A stretch of 60,920 nucleotides of DNA, the filler included. It is 7 parts of 7 records of this genome, joined end to end, with 100 filler letters (N's around TTAATTAATTAA, not from the genome) between each part and the next. Parts side by side here need not be neighbours in the genome. Positions count along the whole stretch, not along the records: positions 29,295 to 37,588 come from SRR20825010_6252; 6 more parts are not named here. One strand, given 5' to 3'. The translations under genes were made by a program, and so were the position numbers. Below the pieces are notes generated by a model. The model did no database searches, was not told where the DNA came from, and was given only the letters and a program-made list of their open reading frames with translations. Positions 13,713 to 37,588 of this stretch are shown in pieces (position 1 is the stretch's first letter; every line of letters begins with the position of its first letter).

Positions 13713-13812
13713 NNNNNNNNNNNNNNNNNNNNNNNNNNNNNNNNNNNNNNNNNNNNTTAATTAATTAANNNNNNNNNNNNNNNNNNNNNNNNNNNNNNNN
13801 NNNNNNNNNNNN
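13713..13812. other. Artificial contig spacer
   Basis: N44-TTAATTAATTAA-N44. Confidence 0.99.
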
Positions 13813-30320: not shown

Positions 30321-30878
30321 ATGAAATTGAAAGAAAAAAGAATTGCGATTTTGGCCACGGATGGTTTTGAACAATCGGAACTGTTTGAGCCTTTGGAAAA
30401 ATTAAAATCAGAAGGAGCCACCGTGGACATTGTTTCCACTAAAGAAGGTGAGATAAAATCTTGGAACAAAACCGATTGGGGAAAAAGCATCAAAGTCGAC
30501 AAAACTGTGGATTCGGCCCACATACTTGATTACGATGCCCTGGTCTTGCCCGGTGGAGTGATGAACCCGGACACATTGCGGACCCATACGGTTGCCGTTA
30601 ACTTTGTTAAAGGTTTTTTCGAAAGAAGCAAACCGGTAGCGGCCATTTGCCATGCTCCTTGGCTTTTGATAGAAGCAGAGGTGATCGATGGACGAAAAGT
30701 AACTTCCTATAAGAGCATTAAAAAGGATGTGATCAATGCCGGTGGGCTTTGGGAAGATAATGAAGTGGTAGTGGACAGTGGCTTGGTAACAAGCCGAAAC
30801 CCTGGAGACCTACCTGCTTTCTGCAATAAAATCGTGGAAGAGGTTTTGGAAGGGAAACATGAAGAACAACATGCCTAA
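30321..30878 (+). CDS. PfpI/YhbO-type DJ-1 family stress protein
   Basis: DGFEQSEL, LPGG, AAICHAPW, TSRNPGDL. Confidence 0.93.
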   Translation: MKLKEKRIAILATDGFEQSELFEPLEKLKSEGATVDIVSTKEGEIKSWNKTDWGKSIKVDKTVDSAHILDYDALVLPGGVMNPDTLRTHTVAVNFVKGFFERSKPVAAICHAPWLLIEAEVIDGRKVTSYKSIKKDVINAGGLWEDNEVVVDSGLVTSRNPGDLPAFCNKIVEEVLEGKHEEQHA

Positions 30879-30929
30879 TATCTTGTTTTCCTAAGAATAA
30901 GAATTGTAAAGCATGTACCAATTAATATG

Positions 30930-30963
30930 GGCGACCGCTTAAAAGTGGTCGCCTATTATTTTT
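30930..30963 (+). terminator. Probable intrinsic terminator
   Basis: GGCGACCGCTT-AA-AAGTGGTCGCC hairpin then T-rich tail. Confidence 0.7.
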
Positions 30964-31127
30964 AATGTAAAGGGTCTCTTTTCGTCTCTCCTTTTTTCTT
31001 GGTTGATGGAAACCTCAGTGGCCTGACCGGGCTCAAAATTATAATTGTCGGGCTTTTCCACAACAATTCTTAAAACGTTATGATTGGTGAATCTTATGGA
31101 TTTGATCTTTACAATGTGCTTTTTGAT
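30964..31127 (-). pseudogene. N-terminal remnant of an FAD-binding FR-type (flavodoxin reductase-like) oxidoreductase
   Basis: Manual translation IKKHIVKIKSIRFTNHNVLRIVVEKPDNYNFEPGQATEVSINQEKRRDEKRPFT; F.PGQ and RPFT motifs; ATC where a start is expected; truncated after RPFT. Confidence 0.7.
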
Positions 31128-32451: not shown

Positions 32452-33477
32452 ATGAAAACAAAAGCGCCACAGACCACATACTTTAGAAATATGTTTGAAC
32501 AGTTTCAAAATGATATTGGGGGCGACCTAAAGGTCGATTCGAACAACGAACATACTCTTGACATCAACAATGACTTTGGAGACGGCTATATCAAAGGAAT
32601 CTCGTTTAATGATGGTATGTGTTATATGGAGTTCGATATTAAATTTACCAAAGATTTAACCATGGTCGTCAATTCGCCAGAGTACACCTCCATTTGCTTT
32701 GCATATTGTTCCCAAGGGCAGATAGCGCAAAGCTTTGGGAAAAATGGCAAAAAAACCGAACTGGAAAGTTTTCAAACTGGAATGTTGGCCAGCAACTCCT
32801 CACAGGACAACCTATTGTACTTTGACGAATCCACCAACTTAAAAATGATGCTGATCATCGTAAATCCTTCGAAGAACAATAGAGCAGAAAAAAACCTCAA
32901 CCAAAAACTACAGAAACTGTTCTTCGATAACATGGAGAACGACAATTTTGTTTATGTAGGTTCCCATAATTTAAAGGTAGCGGATAAAATACAACAGCTT
33001 AAAAGTATTTCCATAGATGGCATTGCCCGAAAAATAATGATCGAGGGATTGGTACACATGATATTGGCATTGGAAATACAACAACATTCCGACGACTTAA
33101 AGAATGCTGTTCTTCGTGACTCAATGCTGACTTCTAGGGAAAGAGGGGTGGTACAAGAGCTTTCGGAATTCATCAGCAACTATATAGAGAGAAAACTGCC
33201 CATATCCTATTTATGCAAAAAAAGCGGGCTATCTCCTTCAAAATTGCAAGAAGGCTTCAAATTGATGCACGGCACCACAGTGACCGATTACATCCGAAAT
33301 GTAAGAATATGTAAAGCGGAAGAATTGATAAAGACCACTGATTTAAATATTTCACAGGTGGTCTATAGCATCGGATTCATAAGCAGAAGTTATTTTTCAA
33401 AAATTTTCAAAGCAAGATACAATTGTAGTCCAAAGGAATATAAGGACAAGCAAAATTCCCGCCTTGTTCCAGCCTGA
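32452..33477 (+). CDS. AraC-family transcriptional regulator
   Basis: GLSPSKLQEGFK and NISQVVYSIGFISRSYFSKIFKARYNCSP double HTH. Confidence 0.95.
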   Translation: MKTKAPQTTYFRNMFEQFQNDIGGDLKVDSNNEHTLDINNDFGDGYIKGISFNDGMCYMEFDIKFTKDLTMVVNSPEYTSICFAYCSQGQIAQSFGKNGKKTELESFQTGMLASNSSQDNLLYFDESTNLKMMLIIVNPSKNNRAEKNLNQKLQKLFFDNMENDNFVYVGSHNLKVADKIQQLKSISIDGIARKIMIEGLVHMILALEIQQHSDDLKNAVLRDSMLTSRERGVVQELSEFISNYIERKLPISYLCKKSGLSPSKLQEGFKLMHGTTVTDYIRNVRICKAEELIKTTDLNISQVVYSIGFISRSYFSKIFKARYNCSPKEYKDKQNSRLVPA

Positions 33478-33611
33478 TTGCACCATAGCGCTCGCTCCCC
33501 TATTACCCTAGGCCGTATGGCCCATTAAAAAAGCAAATGGCACTATAACGTTTTCGACAAATCGTAATAGGGCACCTATTACGTTATAAAAAGCATAAAC
33601 CCCTTGTATTA

Positions 33612-33643
33612 TTGGGATTTAAGGCCTTATTTTCTTACCTTTG
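33612..33643 (+). promoter_or_regulatory. Bacteroidota primary-sigma promoter for the GNAT-rpsU-pro operon
   Basis: TACCTTTG (33636-33643) matches TAnnTTTG; TTG 21 nt upstream. Confidence 0.7.
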
Positions 33644-33648
33644 TCTCG

Positions 33649-33750
33649 ATGAACGTTAAGCTCCACGAGAGAAAAAACTGTAGAATCCTAAGTTTTAATT
33701 ATCTGGTATTCAGAAACCAGTCAGATAAGTTCATTCCGCCTACCCTTTAA
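33649..33750 (+). CDS. Candidate 33-aa leader peptide (uORF) with Pro-Pro near its end
   Basis: Manual translation MNVKLHERKNCRILSFNYLVFRNQSDKFIPPTL*; ATG lies at the expected TSS; upstream of proCBA. Confidence 0.5.
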   Translation: MNVKLHERKNCRILSFNYLVFRNQSDKFIPPTL

Positions 33751-33894
33751 TTACCTTCCCCTTATTCGGGAAGTAGACCCTATTACTATGGGAACTTAAG
33801 GACATTTCGTCCATCCTTTTCCATTTAGCCCTAATCGAAGCTTTAACTAAACTAAAAACTTAAAAATTAATCCATTATCGTTCAAAACAAAAGC

Positions 33895-34338
33895 ATGGTA
33901 ATTAAGACCTACGATGCCTATACAAGGCTTTCTACCATGGAAGCCGACCGGTTTGCCAATTTTCTCTTTGACCACCAAGAGGGCAAGAGAGCTACAAAAA
34001 AAGCAATTAGAAAGGCTATACAATATTCTACCAAAGATATTCCCGGACTTGGCGGATATGTGTTCGCCATGGAGGACAAAAATGAAATTTTAGGTTTGGC
34101 AGTTGTAAACAAAACAGGCATGGGAGATTATATACCCGAAAATTTCTTGGTATTCTTTGTGATTCACAGAGATTATAGAAACAACGATATAGAGCAAAAA
34201 CTATTGGACTACACCCTGCAATATTGTAAAGGAGACGTTGCCGTTCACATTACAGGTGAAAACCAATATCCGAATAAAAAATTTTTTGAAGATAAAGGGT
34301 TCAGCGCAACCCATTTAGAAATGAGATTGAACAGATAA
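33895..34338 (+). CDS. GNAT-fold protein with degenerate acetyl-CoA motif
   Basis: GGYVF..ILGLAVVN..LVFFVIHRDYR..FFEDKGF GNAT layout; motif A reads RNNDIE. Confidence 0.75.
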   Translation: MVIKTYDAYTRLSTMEADRFANFLFDHQEGKRATKKAIRKAIQYSTKDIPGLGGYVFAMEDKNEILGLAVVNKTGMGDYIPENFLVFFVIHRDYRNNDIEQKLLDYTLQYCKGDVAVHITGENQYPNKKFFEDKGFSATHLEMRLNR

Positions 34339-34346
34339 ACCATTAT

Positions 34347-34541
34347 ATGTTAAAAATAGAAGTTAAGCCAGGCGAAAGTATTGAAAGGGCTCTAAAACGC
34401 TATAAAAGAAAATATAGAAACACAAAGCGTTTGGACCAAATACGCAGCCGGCAAGAGTATACCAAAAAATCAGTAGAACGCCGAAAAACACTTAAAAAGG
34501 CACAATATAAAGAGCAATTCCTGAACGAACAGGAAGACTAA
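34347..34541 (+). CDS. rpsU: 30S ribosomal protein bS21 (probable second copy)
   Basis: VKPGESIERALKRYKRK..YTKKSVERR..KAQY. Confidence 0.93.
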   Translation: MLKIEVKPGESIERALKRYKRKYRNTKRLDQIRSRQEYTKKSVERRKTLKKAQYKEQFLNEQED

Positions 34542-34575
34542 TAACATCAAAAATTAAAGTATCAATAACAATAAA

Positions 34576-34767
34576 ATGAGACTTTCAAGAATTAAAAGGG
34601 AAACAAGATATGAAAAACGCTATAGCGTTAAAATGGGAGAACTTACTACCCGTGTCACCTATATAAGAAGGTACATAATGGGACTTCCCGTACGCACTTT
34701 GCACAGATACCGTTCAACATACTACGGTAAGGTCAAAGATTGCAACGATTGCAACGTATTATCATAA
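34576..34767 (+). CDS. Small basic Arg/Tyr-rich hypothetical protein
   Basis: 63 aa, ATG after A-rich tract, fills the gap between rpsU and proC. Confidence 0.7.
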   Translation: MRLSRIKRETRYEKRYSVKMGELTTRVTYIRRYIMGLPVRTLHRYRSTYYGKVKDCNDCNVLS

Positions 34768-34807
34768 CATTATTAGAACTTTTTATATAAACCTTTTAAC
34801 ATAAACA

Positions 34808-35614
34808 ATGAAAGTATTGGTTATTGGCGCAGGTAACATGGGGCTTACCTATGCCACAGGTATGTCTAAATCCAAATTGTTGAAAAAACGCAACATCATG
34901 GTGCTGGACAAATCAAAAGAAAAATTGGAAGAAGTAGGTAAAATAGCCTATTTCGATGCCATTGACAAAATCGAAGATTGTGTTCCACAGGCGGATATCA
35001 TCTTTTTGGCCGTAAAACCATATCATGCCGAGGAACTTTTTGGGCGCATGAAACCATTGGTAAACCCAGAACAATTGTTCATATCCATTATGGCAGGGGT
35101 CACCATCAACTATATACAGGAAGCCCTTGGTATCAAAAAAGTGGTAAGGGCCATGCCCAATCTGCCAGCTCAAGTTGGTAAGGGTTTGACCAGCTACGTG
35201 TCCGCCGAGGAAGTTTCCCGATTGGAACTTTTTATGGTCGAAGGGCTGTTGGATACAACGGGTAAATCGCTTAGAGTGAAAAATGAGAAATATATTGATG
35301 CATCTACCGGAATTTCTGGAAGTGGACCAGCATATGTTTTCTACTTCATGCAAAGTATGATGGAAGCCGCACTACAAATGGGATTCTCCGAAAATGTATC
35401 CAAAGTACTCGTGAGCCAAACATTTACAGGTGCCGTGGAATTGTTCAACCAGAACAACCTAAATCCCGACACTTGGATGGAGATGGTAGCCTCCAAAGGA
35501 GGAACCACCAGGGCCGCCTTGGACTCCATGGAAGACAACAATGTAAACGAATTAATCAAAGAAGCCGCCTTTGCAGCATTCGGTAGAGCTGTGGAACTGG
35601 GCGAAGAATACTAA
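34808..35614 (+). CDS. proC: Pyrroline-5-carboxylate reductase
   Basis: IGAGNMG, AVKP, RAMPN, SGSGPAY, VASKGGTT. Confidence 0.96.
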   Translation: MKVLVIGAGNMGLTYATGMSKSKLLKKRNIMVLDKSKEKLEEVGKIAYFDAIDKIEDCVPQADIIFLAVKPYHAEELFGRMKPLVNPEQLFISIMAGVTINYIQEALGIKKVVRAMPNLPAQVGKGLTSYVSAEEVSRLELFMVEGLLDTTGKSLRVKNEKYIDASTGISGSGPAYVFYFMQSMMEAALQMGFSENVSKVLVSQTFTGAVELFNQNNLNPDTWMEMVASKGGTTRAALDSMEDNNVNELIKEAAFAAFGRAVELGEEY

Positions 35615-35617
35615 AAC

Positions 35618-36388
35618 ATGTATAAAGAACTAGTGGTCATCAAAGTAGGTACAAATGTGATGACCAACAAAGACAACAGAATTGTAAGACCAGTGCTCAA
35701 CAATTTGGTACAACAAATTGCAGAGCTTTACGAACGTGACATCATGACCATTTTGGTCTCCTCTGGGTCGGTAATCGCCGGTAAAGAGGTTCTGGGAAAA
35801 GCAAAGATCAAAGATAAGACCCAACGTAGGCAAGTATATTCCGCCATTGGGCAACCCAGAATGATGAGGCATTATTATAACATATTCAACGATTACGGAA
35901 TGAAATGTGCCCAGGTACTCCCAACAAAAAGGGATTTTAATCCTGGCGTGCACCGCGACAACATGATCAATTGCTTGGAAGGACTCCTTTCCGAAGGCGT
36001 GATTCCGATTGCCAATGAGGATGATGCCGTTTCCGTATCCATGTCCATGTTTTCGGACAATGATGAATTGGCCACTTTGCTGGCACAACTGATGAAGGCA
36101 GACAGACTTATCCTAATGACGGATATTGATGGCCTTTACGATGGACATCCAGAAAAAGCCGATTCCAAGGTAATCGACAAGGTCGAGCCAAAAGAAGACT
36201 TGGACAAGTATATAGAAGAGGGAAACAAACAAGAAGGCGAAGGCCGTGGTGGCATGGGATCAAAATTAAACTATGCCCAAAAAGCCGCAGCGGCAGACAT
36301 TCCATCTTACATTGTCAATGGGAAACGAGATAACGTAATCCTGGATATTGTAGAAGGAAAAAATGTAGGAACAGAAGTTTCAAAATAA
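35618..36388 (+). CDS. proB: Glutamate 5-kinase without PUA domain
   Basis: VIKVGT, VSSGSV, IGQ, NEDDAV..SDND, GGMGSK. Confidence 0.95.
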   Translation: MYKELVVIKVGTNVMTNKDNRIVRPVLNNLVQQIAELYERDIMTILVSSGSVIAGKEVLGKAKIKDKTQRRQVYSAIGQPRMMRHYYNIFNDYGMKCAQVLPTKRDFNPGVHRDNMINCLEGLLSEGVIPIANEDDAVSVSMSMFSDNDELATLLAQLMKADRLILMTDIDGLYDGHPEKADSKVIDKVEPKEDLDKYIEEGNKQEGEGRGGMGSKLNYAQKAAAADIPSYIVNGKRDNVILDIVEGKNVGTEVSK

Positions 36389-36393
36389 CAACA

Positions 36394-37588
36394 ATGAAAT
36401 TATTAAAAACAGATTTAAAAAATAAAGTATTGCAAGATATGGAGCGAATCCTTGATGAAAATCGGGACGAATTGCTCCAAGCAAACAAAAAAGATTTAGA
36501 CGCATTCAACCGCGACGATCAAGCATTGTACGATCGTTTGGTGGTGGACCAAAAGAAAGTGGACCAAATGATCCAGGCCGTGAAAGAAGTTCGCTTGCAA
36601 GATGACCCGGTCAATAAGGAAATCTCCACAAGGGAATTGGACAACGGACTCAAAATCATCAACAGAACTGCTCCTTTTGGCACCATAATGATTATTTACG
36701 AGTCCCGCCCCGATGTAACCATTGAGGCAGCCGTACTTGCATTTAAGGCGAATAATAAAATATTGCTCAAAGGAGGTAAGGAAGCTTACCACAGCAACAA
36801 AGCCTTGGTTAAGTTCTGGCATCAAGCCCTGACCGAAAATGGTCTGTCCAAAGATTATATCCAGTTTATGGAGATGGACAGGACCCAAACACAGGAGTTC
36901 CTTAGGAATCCGGATCAGGAGCTAGACCTCATTGTTCCCCGTGGCGGCGAACGATTGATCAATTTTGTAAAAGAACACGCCAAATGCGCGGTGCTCATAA
37001 GCGGTAGAGGGAACAATTTCCTATATGTGCACAAAGAAGCCGATTGGGAAAAAAGTTTGAAAGTGATTTTGAACGCAAAAACCCATAAGATTTCGGCCTG
37101 TAATGCCTTGGACAAAATTTTGGTTGATACTCAAATTGATGGTTATGAAGACAAGCTGAAAGAATTACAACAAGTACTCACGGCAAACAATGTATCCATA
37201 ATCGTGGATGATAAAGTCAAAAAAACATTGACCAATGAGGATGCCATTACCGATGAATCCATTTGGCAAGAAGAGTTCTTGGCCATGAAGTGTGTTATTG
37301 GTGCTGTCGATAATATTGACGAAGCCATGGATAAAATCAACAAGAACTCTGGAGGGCACTCAGCATCCATAATGACGGAGAACAATAGTGTAGCCAAAAC
37401 GTTCATGGAAAATGTGGACTGTGCTGCGGTATACCAAAACGCATCCACCCGTTTCACTGATGGTGGGCAAATGGGCGTTGGTGCGGAACTCGCAATCAGT
37501 ACGGACAAATTGCACCACCGAGGGCCACTCGGACTAAAACAACTGGTCACCAACAAATACTATGTATTTGGCGATGGGCAGATAAGGG
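36394..37588 (+). CDS. proA: Gamma-glutamyl phosphate reductase (last codons cut by contig end)
   Basis: IYESRPDVT, PRGG, SACNA, NASTRFTDG, ISTDKLHHRGP. Confidence 0.96.

Follow-up and report, generated by a model that had tools for sequence, protein, structure and literature searches.

The DNA stretch analysed here (the window, 60,920 bases) carries, at 33636-37588, a single same-strand unit in which a promoter and a short leader open reading frame (ORF) are followed by genes for a GNAT-family acetyltransferase, a paralogue of ribosomal protein bS21, a conserved basic protein of 63 amino acids (basic63) and the proline-synthesis enzymes ProC, ProB and ProA, and then by a terminator. Judging by the names on the closest proteins and records, the unit probably belongs to Flagellimonas (formerly Muricauda/Allomuricauda), a genus of the Flavobacteriaceae, and the context genome is G001. 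On balance, we favour the reading that this is a leader-controlled operon, in which a leader peptide, sensitive to proline supply or osmotic stress, acts as a switch for proline synthesis and for an alternative bS21 and, in relatives, for an alternative sigma factor as well. Read from its sequence, the leader mini-gene probably senses proline supply, and there are hints of ribosome retuning under proline or salt-balance stress.

The most informative element of the unit is the leader peptide. The first-pass annotation had marked a leader or upstream ORF at this place, and a 33-codon ORF is indeed present, but the conserved peptide that it encodes had gone unrecognised. In an alignment of the 450 nucleotides (nt) upstream of the GNAT gene from 30 species of the genus, a conserved upstream block and the -7 box of the promoter are followed directly by the leader ORF, in which differences between species are mostly third-position and synonymous (pairwise ratio of nonsynonymous to synonymous substitution rates, dN/dS, of 0.047). 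From this substitution pattern, we infer that the ORF is translated. The peptide is kept in other genera despite diverged DNA, with 14 residues invariant across 12 genera (M1, N10, R12, F16, L19, V20, F21, R22, Q24, K27, F28, I29, P30 and P31), a consensus of MxKGIHExxNxRIFNFNFLVFRNQSDKFIPPxx and the C-terminal form ..LVFRNQSDKFIPP-x-x-stop. The Pro-Pro pair is invariant and lies 2-5 codons ahead of the stop, which places proline codons at the regulatory position for a proline operon, and the stop falls exactly two codons past Pro-Pro in 19 of 23 leaders. No protein on record matches the peptide, which is a candidate new family of regulatory upstream ORFs. In one Flagellimonas-titled locus (L156), the leader ORF is apparently broken or shortened, with only ..GFRNQPDKFIPPVL-stop in frame and two tblastn pieces; there, the leader stands before bS21-basic63, without a GNAT gene.

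Bacteroidota promoters follow the consensus TTTG / TAnnTTTG, and one such promoter had been proposed for this operon. Across the window, TAnnTTTG is no commoner than chance (62 found vs 67 expected), so the promoter call rests on conservation rather than on motif frequency, and the -7 box, kept in every species and genus compared (Table 1), bears it out. On the + strand of 33600-37588, the motif occurs only at 33636-33643 and at 34091, within the GNAT gene, and at no intergenic position inside the unit. The leader ATG lies 4-5 nt after the G of TAnnTTTG in 11 of 12 genera, the box of L107 being further upstream; given this spacing and the usual promoter-to-start distance, the leader transcript should start at or just before the start codon and be nearly leaderless. 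Upstream of the promoter is an inverted repeat whose distal half is invariant and whose proximal half is mostly conserved in the 30-species alignment, followed on its 3' side, up to ~33620, by a conserved CCAGTATTATTGGGATTT-like stretch. By its sequence, 33544-33620 may be an operator through which a transcription factor adds to the control by the leader. A CCAGTATTATTGGG-like near-palindrome, also conserved in the genus alignment, lies within this block just 5' of the promoter.

Two hairpins, P1 and P2, follow the leader ORF, and their pairings were specified by hand for a test of pairing and covariation. Taken together, 83.5% of cells are paired, vs 65-66% after a one-column slide, and both-side changes occur in nine pairs, vs 4.6 +/- 1.4 in shuffles. 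For the 75 nt past Pro-Pro, too, folding is on average more favourable than in shuffled sequence (mean z -1.23, 20 sequences). Outside the genus, the layout varies, the first hairpin often reaching with its 5' arm into the last leader codons or the stop. No T-box or other Rfam RNA family matches the leader among the Rfam covariance models at E <= 1; at the same threshold, the only match in the contig is RF00558 (L20 leader, E 0.91, 30853-30966), which is at chance level and outside the leader.

The leader is found well beyond the genus, in front of varied genes. Two samples were searched, a family sample of 151 genus-representative genomes and an order sample of 401 genomes; the loci samples carry a bias from how they were drawn, and related genomes do not count as independent. 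Matches to the leader at E <= 0.1 occur in 17 genomes of the family sample, 12 of them with the whole leader ORF; the five weaker matches (E 1e-3 to 0.08; L110-L114) and order-level matches with E > 1e-5 have no complete leader ORF and were not counted. Behind the 12 leaders stand GNAT-basic63-proC(B) in six genera and, with bS21, in G001; basic63-proC-proB, GNAT-basic63, basic63 alone, and a BCCT transporter in one genus each; and, in one more, basic63 and then a sigma-70 paralogue, with a universal stress protein gene upstream. Basic63 is the gene with the most constant tie to the leader. Strong matches (E <= 1e-5) are confined to five genomes of the order sample, one of which is from another family and has two leader copies, one before a BCCT transporter and one before a protein of 387 amino acids. 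The two BCCT genes behind a leader (L106:1495-3086 and L132:2-1602) come from different families; both proteins score best against the glycine-betaine uptake model, below its cut-off, both ORFs being truncated where the locus ends. Leader-BCCT is preceded in L106 by a homocysteine S-methyltransferase gene and accompanied in L132 by a divergent arginase-family gene. Two unrelated-looking proteins of 396 and 387 amino acids with no clear family (L117:1713-2903 and L118:207-1370) also stand directly behind a leader.

A paralogue-based search yielded 80 named loci (L134-L213): 31 with the leader, 27 with proC and 41 with a same-strand sigma-70 paralogue no more than 3 kb away. At about half of the paralogue loci, the sigma-70 paralogue is immediately upstream of a bS21 gene that lacks a Shine-Dalgarno (SD) sequence. 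The orders include 22 loci of the Flagellimonas type (L142 ends just after bS21, so basic63 and proCBA are uncheckable there), leader-bS21-basic63 and leader-GNAT-bS21-proCBA (two each), leader-GNAT-sigma70-bS21 (five Tenacibaculum-titled loci), sigma70-bS21-GNAT (three), bS21-NYN-sigma70 (four) and plain sigma70-bS21 (about two dozen). In L158, the sole Tenacibaculum-titled locus read downstream, an SSF symporter (best specific model PutP, below cut-off) and then an amidohydrolase follow. Scanning metagenomes with the leader alignment yielded 13 loci; in six, a bS21 paralogue stands behind the leader, and the orders include leader-basic63-sigma70-bS21 and leader-GNAT-bS21. Because the same parts recur in at least six gene orders, the comparison argues for function rather than accident. 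The first-pass annotation had proposed an osmotic or stress theme, and this idea is partly supported because proline synthesis, betaine-type uptake (BCCT transporters in two genomes) and, in Tenacibaculum-titled records, a PutP-like symporter share one leader; the change in ribosome composition and the stress response that it also proposed would follow by inference only.

The bS21 gene of the operon is one of three bS21 matches in G001, and it is a paralogue. The label rpsU given to it earlier is right as to family, both profiles scoring above cut-off (Table 1), but not as to the housekeeping gene, since the operon copy lacks an SD sequence in the 25 nt before 34347 and the canonical copy is elsewhere. 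That canonical copy, on another contig, has the best score (69.8 bits) and AAGGAGGT 8 nt before its ATG; at L007:7818-9001 it is followed by a tyrosine recombinase-like gene and a 116-amino-acid ORF, with a tRNA-like sequence and tuf nearby. The third copy (L006:7901-9716, - strand), ~24 kb from the operon, has no SD and has His at position 54; it appears to be the first gene of an operon that goes on with an NYN + OST-HTH/LOTUS protein and then a sigma-70 paralogue, and adjoins a tyrosine-recombinase-like gene and a 1,467-amino-acid efflux-pump-like gene. G001 has four full-length sigma-70 genes, 56-59% identical.

In Flavobacteriales, PMC9976891 describes rpsU as having a strong extended SD and being translated by ribosomes that lack bS21, in an autoregulatory loop, and PMC7797042 describes Tyr54 of the F. 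johnsoniae ribosome as stacking on A1534, the point at which the 16S tail bends into its pocket. The operon copy retains Tyr54 (KAQY, in which Y is residue 54), and among the 80 paralogue loci, an SD is absent in 79 and Tyr54 is kept in 79. In other genera, 27 bS21 genes from 29 loci fall into four with an SD, of the KRKFD.TG.MRQLR type like the canonical G001 copy, and 23 without, of the KRK.RN.K type. By sequence, the paralogue would bind the normal bS21 site; because it lacks an SD, it would stand outside rpsU autoregulation and be made regardless of the loop, and by filling the bS21 site it should lower translation of canonical rpsU. At least two bS21 matches are present in 53 of the 151 family genomes, and three in six; in a descriptive tally uncorrected for relatedness, at least two occur in 31 of 52 genomes with basic63 vs 22 of 99 without. 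A phage origin was considered and rejected, with no tblastn match in 50,697 phage records (E <= 1e-5). The discussion in PMC9976891 lists bS21 paralogues in cyanobacteria, proteobacteria and others, and Bacteroidota is not among the groups listed there.

The arrangement is not confined to one genome. Among 101 species genomes of the genus, 53 match the 1,006-nt stretch from GNAT through bS21 and basic63 to proC along its whole length, at 74-100% identity, and three more match it in part, and all 30 genus loci fetched are colinear with intact ORFs. Pairwise dN/dS, computed on the five ORFs from the leader to proC in 30 species, is low throughout, at 0.039 for GNAT, 0.040 for the bS21 paralogue, 0.079 for basic63 and 0.020 for proC, beside the leader value given above; the protein identity of the operon paralogue within the genus (86-100%) is higher than that of GNAT or basic63. 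Among 30 basic63 loci from genus representatives, GNAT-basic63-proC-proB without bS21 is found in five, basic63-proC-proB in two and GNAT-basic63 alone in one, the rest being other contexts; bS21 is present at the locus in G001 alone. Since the older GNAT-basic63-proC order lacks bS21 in five other genera, the bS21 gene appears to be a later addition to an older GNAT-basic63-proCBA unit. In the other contexts, a 340-amino-acid ORF often precedes basic63; it is common to 11 loci and galE-like by a reading of its N-terminus. Maribacter-titled and other records have related layouts, with a bS21 paralogue beside proCBA.

The layout of the unit agrees with its first description as six same-strand genes with 3-40 bp gaps; all six lie on the + strand, and the coordinates give gaps of 8, 34, 40, 3 and 5 nt. 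A leader of about 245 nt had been proposed, and ~247 nt separate the -7 box from the GNAT ATG. The absence of an internal terminator likewise stands: a scan of 33400-37588 gave no terminator-like site on the + strand, all eight sites being on the - strand, and P2 fails the terminator rule of that scan. ProB, ProA and ProC all score above NCBI equivalog cut-offs. In the window, proA is truncated by the contig end one codon short of its stop; in G001 (L005), the whole gene encodes 399 amino acids, and a strong intrinsic terminator hairpin, AAAAAAAGGAGGC-tgat-GCCTCCTTTTTT, lies 22 nt past the stop. Beyond this terminator, G001 has genes for a tandem DUF1508 protein and a LytTR-domain regulator (L005:14222-15479); the window contig ends earlier.

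Table 1. Features of the leader-proCBA unit, in window coordinates.
Feature	Position	Strand	Basis and remarks
Candidate operator, inverted repeat	33544-33588	+	TATAACGT (33544-33551) and ACGTTATA (33581-33588), 29 nt apart; sequence reading, genus alignment
Promoter	-33-like TTG 33612-33614; -7 box 33636-33643	+	-7 box TACCTTTG, kept in 30/30 species and 12/12 genera
Leader ORF, 33 codons and stop	33649-33750	+	MNVKLHERKNCRILSFNYLVFRNQSDKFIPPTL-stop; ATG 5 nt past -7 box; Pro-Pro codons 33736-33741
Hairpin P1	33755-33773	+	CTTCCC / GGGAAG; starts 5 nt past leader stop; 93% of cells paired, 3/6 pairs changed on both sides
Hairpin P2	33788-33824	+	Outer ATGGGAA / TTTCCAT, inner GGAC / GTCC, T-rich 3' side; 77.6% and 80% of cells paired
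GNAT-family acetyltransferase, 147 amino acids	33895-34338	+	Pfam Acetyltransf_10, 27.6 bits vs cut-off 23.6, weak match
bS21 paralogue, 64 amino acids	34347-34541	+	PF01165, 48.8 vs 27; TIGR00030, 42.2 vs 28.95
basic63, conserved basic protein, 63 amino acids	34576-34767	+	No Pfam/NCBIfam family; predicted all-beta
proC, pyrroline-5-carboxylate reductase	34808-35614	+	TIGR00112, 235.6 vs 196.75
proB, glutamate 5-kinase, kinase domain only, without PUA	35618-36388	+	TIGR01027, 222 vs 186
proA, glutamate-5-semialdehyde dehydrogenase, cut by contig end	36394-37588	+	NF001221, 434.5 vs 289

Four public runs labelled RNA, all as assembled contigs, bear on transcription of the unit. Three marine metatranscriptome runs from two studies contain contigs identical to the window, which run from the leader ORF into GNAT (33672-34052 and 33672-34126) and bridge bS21/basic63/proC (34480-34897), basic63/proC (34606-34842) and proC/proB (35569-35794). 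These contigs fit co-transcription weakly, because assembled contigs do not establish a single transcript, and they prove neither start site nor level. Run X2 resembles genomic DNA, with one 8.7-kb piece at even depth. Uncovered stretches (e.g. 37040-37588 in X5-X7) and the common contig start at 33672 (X5 and X7, from one study) are uninformative on transcript ends.

In the leader-controlled reading that we favour, the leader ORF, with hardly any transcript ahead of it, would be translated. Whenever proline starvation or an osmotic demand for proline left prolyl-tRNA scarce, the ribosome would slow at Pro-Pro and, once stalled, cover or remodel the hairpins just downstream, thereby permitting transcription or translation into the operon. 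The cell would then make proline together with an alternative bS21 that is outside the SD-based autoregulation of canonical rpsU. With Tyr54 kept, the alternative bS21 would enter the 30S platform and shift ribosome composition, and in relatives the same switch would also raise an alternative sigma factor.

Several observations weigh against this reading. The leader has only two or three proline codons, and a canonical terminator/antiterminator pair was not found, the scan giving no + strand terminator in the leader. RNAalifold retained only 3 pairs on the stretch past Pro-Pro, the position of the first hairpin varies between genera, and 4 of 20 such stretches have a positive z. In the family sample, 11 of the 12 leader-bearing genera have no bS21 in the operon, and at four Maribacter-type loci no leader was found in the 2.1 kb preceding the sigma gene of sigma70-bS21-basic63-proCBA. 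The RNA evidence consists of assembled contigs, in which DNA carry-over is possible. The proline content of the operon proteins is 1.5-3.1%, vs 3.26% for a crude background of 19 long ORFs, and is not distinctive; the idea that proline-poor operon proteins are a sign of expression under proline lack was rejected on these figures.

A further point is that the peptide is conserved far beyond what codon counting would need, which points to other or additional sensing through the nascent chain. Ligand-sensing arrest peptides such as TnaC and SpeFL provide a model, in which the nascent chain together with a small molecule (free proline or another compatible solute) or ionic conditions would stall the ribosome near Pro-Pro or the stop. 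There is room for such a ligand- or ion-sensing peptide because the whole peptide is strongly conserved at the amino-acid level, with its 14 invariant residues and low dN/dS, and the spacing from Pro-Pro to the stop is fixed in most leaders. Both properties fit what a stall of the SecM, TnaC or SpeFL kind at Pro-Pro or the stop would call for, and the leader also heads betaine-type transporters, which are not proline makers. Against this, an invariant Pro-Pro before proline biosynthesis genes is the simplest regulatory codon signal, and we consider an arrest peptide of this kind unlikely. The opposite simplification, in which the leader region acts solely as an RNA- or protein-binding site and the ORF is incidental, would account for the conserved hairpins 3' of the ORF and the conserved inverted repeat upstream of the promoter. 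It is hard to reconcile with the mostly synonymous changes of the ORF and with a peptide that is kept while the DNA diverges, and no Rfam family was found at E <= 1 save the chance-level L20 leader elsewhere; we give it hardly any credence.

The place of bS21 in the operon raises separate questions. A duplicated rpsU may have landed between GNAT and basic63 in the ancestor of part of the genus and been kept for dosage or for no specific reason, as the presence of bS21 in G001 alone among the 30 basic63 loci, the ancestral-looking GNAT-basic63-proC order in five other genera and the widely varying bS21 copy number would suggest. Against this, SD-less paralogues stand behind the same leader or beside genes of the module in at least six gene orders, and the operon paralogue is more conserved than GNAT and basic63, with a low dN/dS, which leaves this explanation very unlikely. 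It is scarcely more probable that the paralogue has its role away from the ribosome, perhaps binding RNA in partnership with the sigma-70 paralogue, GNAT or basic63, so that transcription or RNA metabolism is reprogrammed. The sigma-70 paralogue near 41 of 80 paralogue loci and an NYN/LOTUS nuclease-like gene at four point that way, and bS21 has been reported in a non-ribosomal ribonucleoprotein (PMC12054373). However, the paralogues are canonical in length, match the Pfam and NCBIfam models over the full length of those models and almost all keep Tyr54, and because of these features ordinary binding to the 30S platform fits. A broader and rather doubtful version of the leader-controlled reading is that a Flavobacteriaceae nascent-peptide sensor, encoded on a leaderless transcript, would react to a lack of proline or to osmotic stress by switching on solute supply, an alternative sigma-70 and an SD-less bS21, which would displace canonical bS21 and build specialised ribosomes, with GNAT and basic63 as further parts of the platform remodelling or of solute production. 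The setting would be the single bacterial class in which bS21 gates access to the anti-SD.

The kinds of element in the unit are known (a regulatory-codon leader ORF, a ribosomal-protein paralogue and a biosynthetic operon). Their combination was found undescribed in the literature searched, which covered flavobacterial bS21/rpsU, Bacteroidetes proline leader peptides and Muricauda salt stress, and in which the rpsU survey tables of PMC9976891 and PMC7797042 may list extra copies. By analogy, the nearest documented system appears to be Salmonella mgtP, whose proline-codon leader ORF increases transcription under a predicted drop in prolyl-tRNA, with hyperosmotic stress as a further inducer (PMC3641672). 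Like mgtP and mgtL, the leaders of mgtCBR and mgtA, the ORF described here is a short 5'-leader ORF with conserved proline codons, and there too a hyperosmotic link is reported (PMC3641672). Unlike them, it comes from another phylum and encodes an unrelated peptide that is conserved as a whole, it is nearly leaderless, and no attenuator hairpin pair is defined; its genes are for proline synthesis, solute uptake, sigma factors and bS21 paralogues.

Three ribosomal precedents are also relevant. Francisella tularensis has several bS21 paralogues able to change ribosome composition and gene expression (PMC9578407, PMC13374519, PMC9976891); several bS21 genes per genome are found here as well, but the operon copy is in an amino-acid biosynthesis operon behind a leader peptide and in a class where bS21 sequesters the anti-SD. 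Relative to F. johnsoniae rpsU (PMC9976891, PMC7797042), which shares its protein family and bacterial order, G001 has a canonical copy with a strong SD and a paralogue with Tyr54, whereas the operon copy without an SD should escape the autoregulatory loop. Zur-controlled C- ribosomal-protein paralogues are switched on by nutrient limitation and replace zinc-binding proteins under zinc lack (PMC9976891). They resemble the proposed system in placing an alternative ribosomal protein under a nutrient-type signal, although bS21 is not a zinc-binding protein and the proposed signal is proline or osmotic state.

Two classical operon systems offer further comparisons, one in gene order and one in proline control. 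The macromolecular-synthesis operon of E. coli, rpsU-dnaG-rpoD, consists of housekeeping genes with the primase gene between the other two. The bS21 and sigma-70 genes are likewise together in 41 of the 80 paralogue loci, but there both are paralogues and the order is sigma and then bS21. In Bacillus subtilis, a proline-specific T-box acts on proBA and proI, and proHJ and OpuE are osmotically induced. Proline genes under a cis element that reads prolyl-tRNA, and solute uptake tied to osmotic stress, would be shared with the system proposed here, in which the sensor would be a translated peptide rather than a T-box or other Rfam family.

GNAT and basic63 are the least characterised members of the unit. 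For GNAT, only general acetyltransferase profiles match; NCBIfam yields nothing at E <= 0.1, and the PDB has no sequence match with E under 0.7. A RimI-type ribosomal-protein acetyltransferase was considered, but no curated RimI model matches and the one hint is an automatic Atlas cluster name; a RimI-like role or synthesis of an N-acetylated solute is a guess. Basic63 has a single match in 52 of the 151 family genomes and 19 invariant columns among 37 sequences. AlphaFold, run on the 37-sequence alignment, gives a three-to-four-strand beta meander (pLDDT 77.9), and because this model is all-beta, a helix-turn-helix reading drawn from G-L-P-x-R-T-L-H-K-Y-R was dropped. Foldseek against PDB gave nothing at E <= 0.001, a PDB profile search nothing below E 1.5 and Pfam nothing at E <= 0.1, and Atlas matches are unnamed Bacteroidota clusters only. 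Identity with bL38/DUF4295 (family name from PMC7797042) was rejected, PF14128 being among the unmatched Pfam families. The earlier view that the operon carries translation-linked genes therefore stands for the bS21 gene and not for the basic ORF, which has no demonstrable translation link.

The window itself consists of at least seven contigs linked end to end through six N..TTAATTAATTAA..N spacers at 13757, 24536, 29239, 37633, 44821 and 55042, and the operon's own contig spans 29296-37588 only. On this contig, the tkt, pfpI, mgtC and AraC-regulator genes listed by the first-pass annotation are all present, with tkt cut and pfpI belonging to DJ-1/PfpI. The stretch 33480-37588 is matched by 100% identical DNA on a 270-kb contig of G001. 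Several other pieces of the window are probably from other organisms, because contig G+C spans 0.31-0.56 and G001 shares only 43% of the sampled window words.

In Bacteroidia, bS21 takes part in hiding the anti-SD tail of 16S rRNA, and the one strongly SD-dependent gene is that of bS21 itself. If the leader-controlled reading is true, a second class of bS21 genes, without an SD, under a proline-codon leader and in many cases linked also to an alternative sigma factor, would represent natural, regulated ribosome heterogeneity. Regulatory upstream ORFs are little described in this phylum, and the leader would give a handle on proline and osmotic sensing in marine flavobacteria. Basic63, with its wide occurrence in the family, and GNAT would gain a physiological context.

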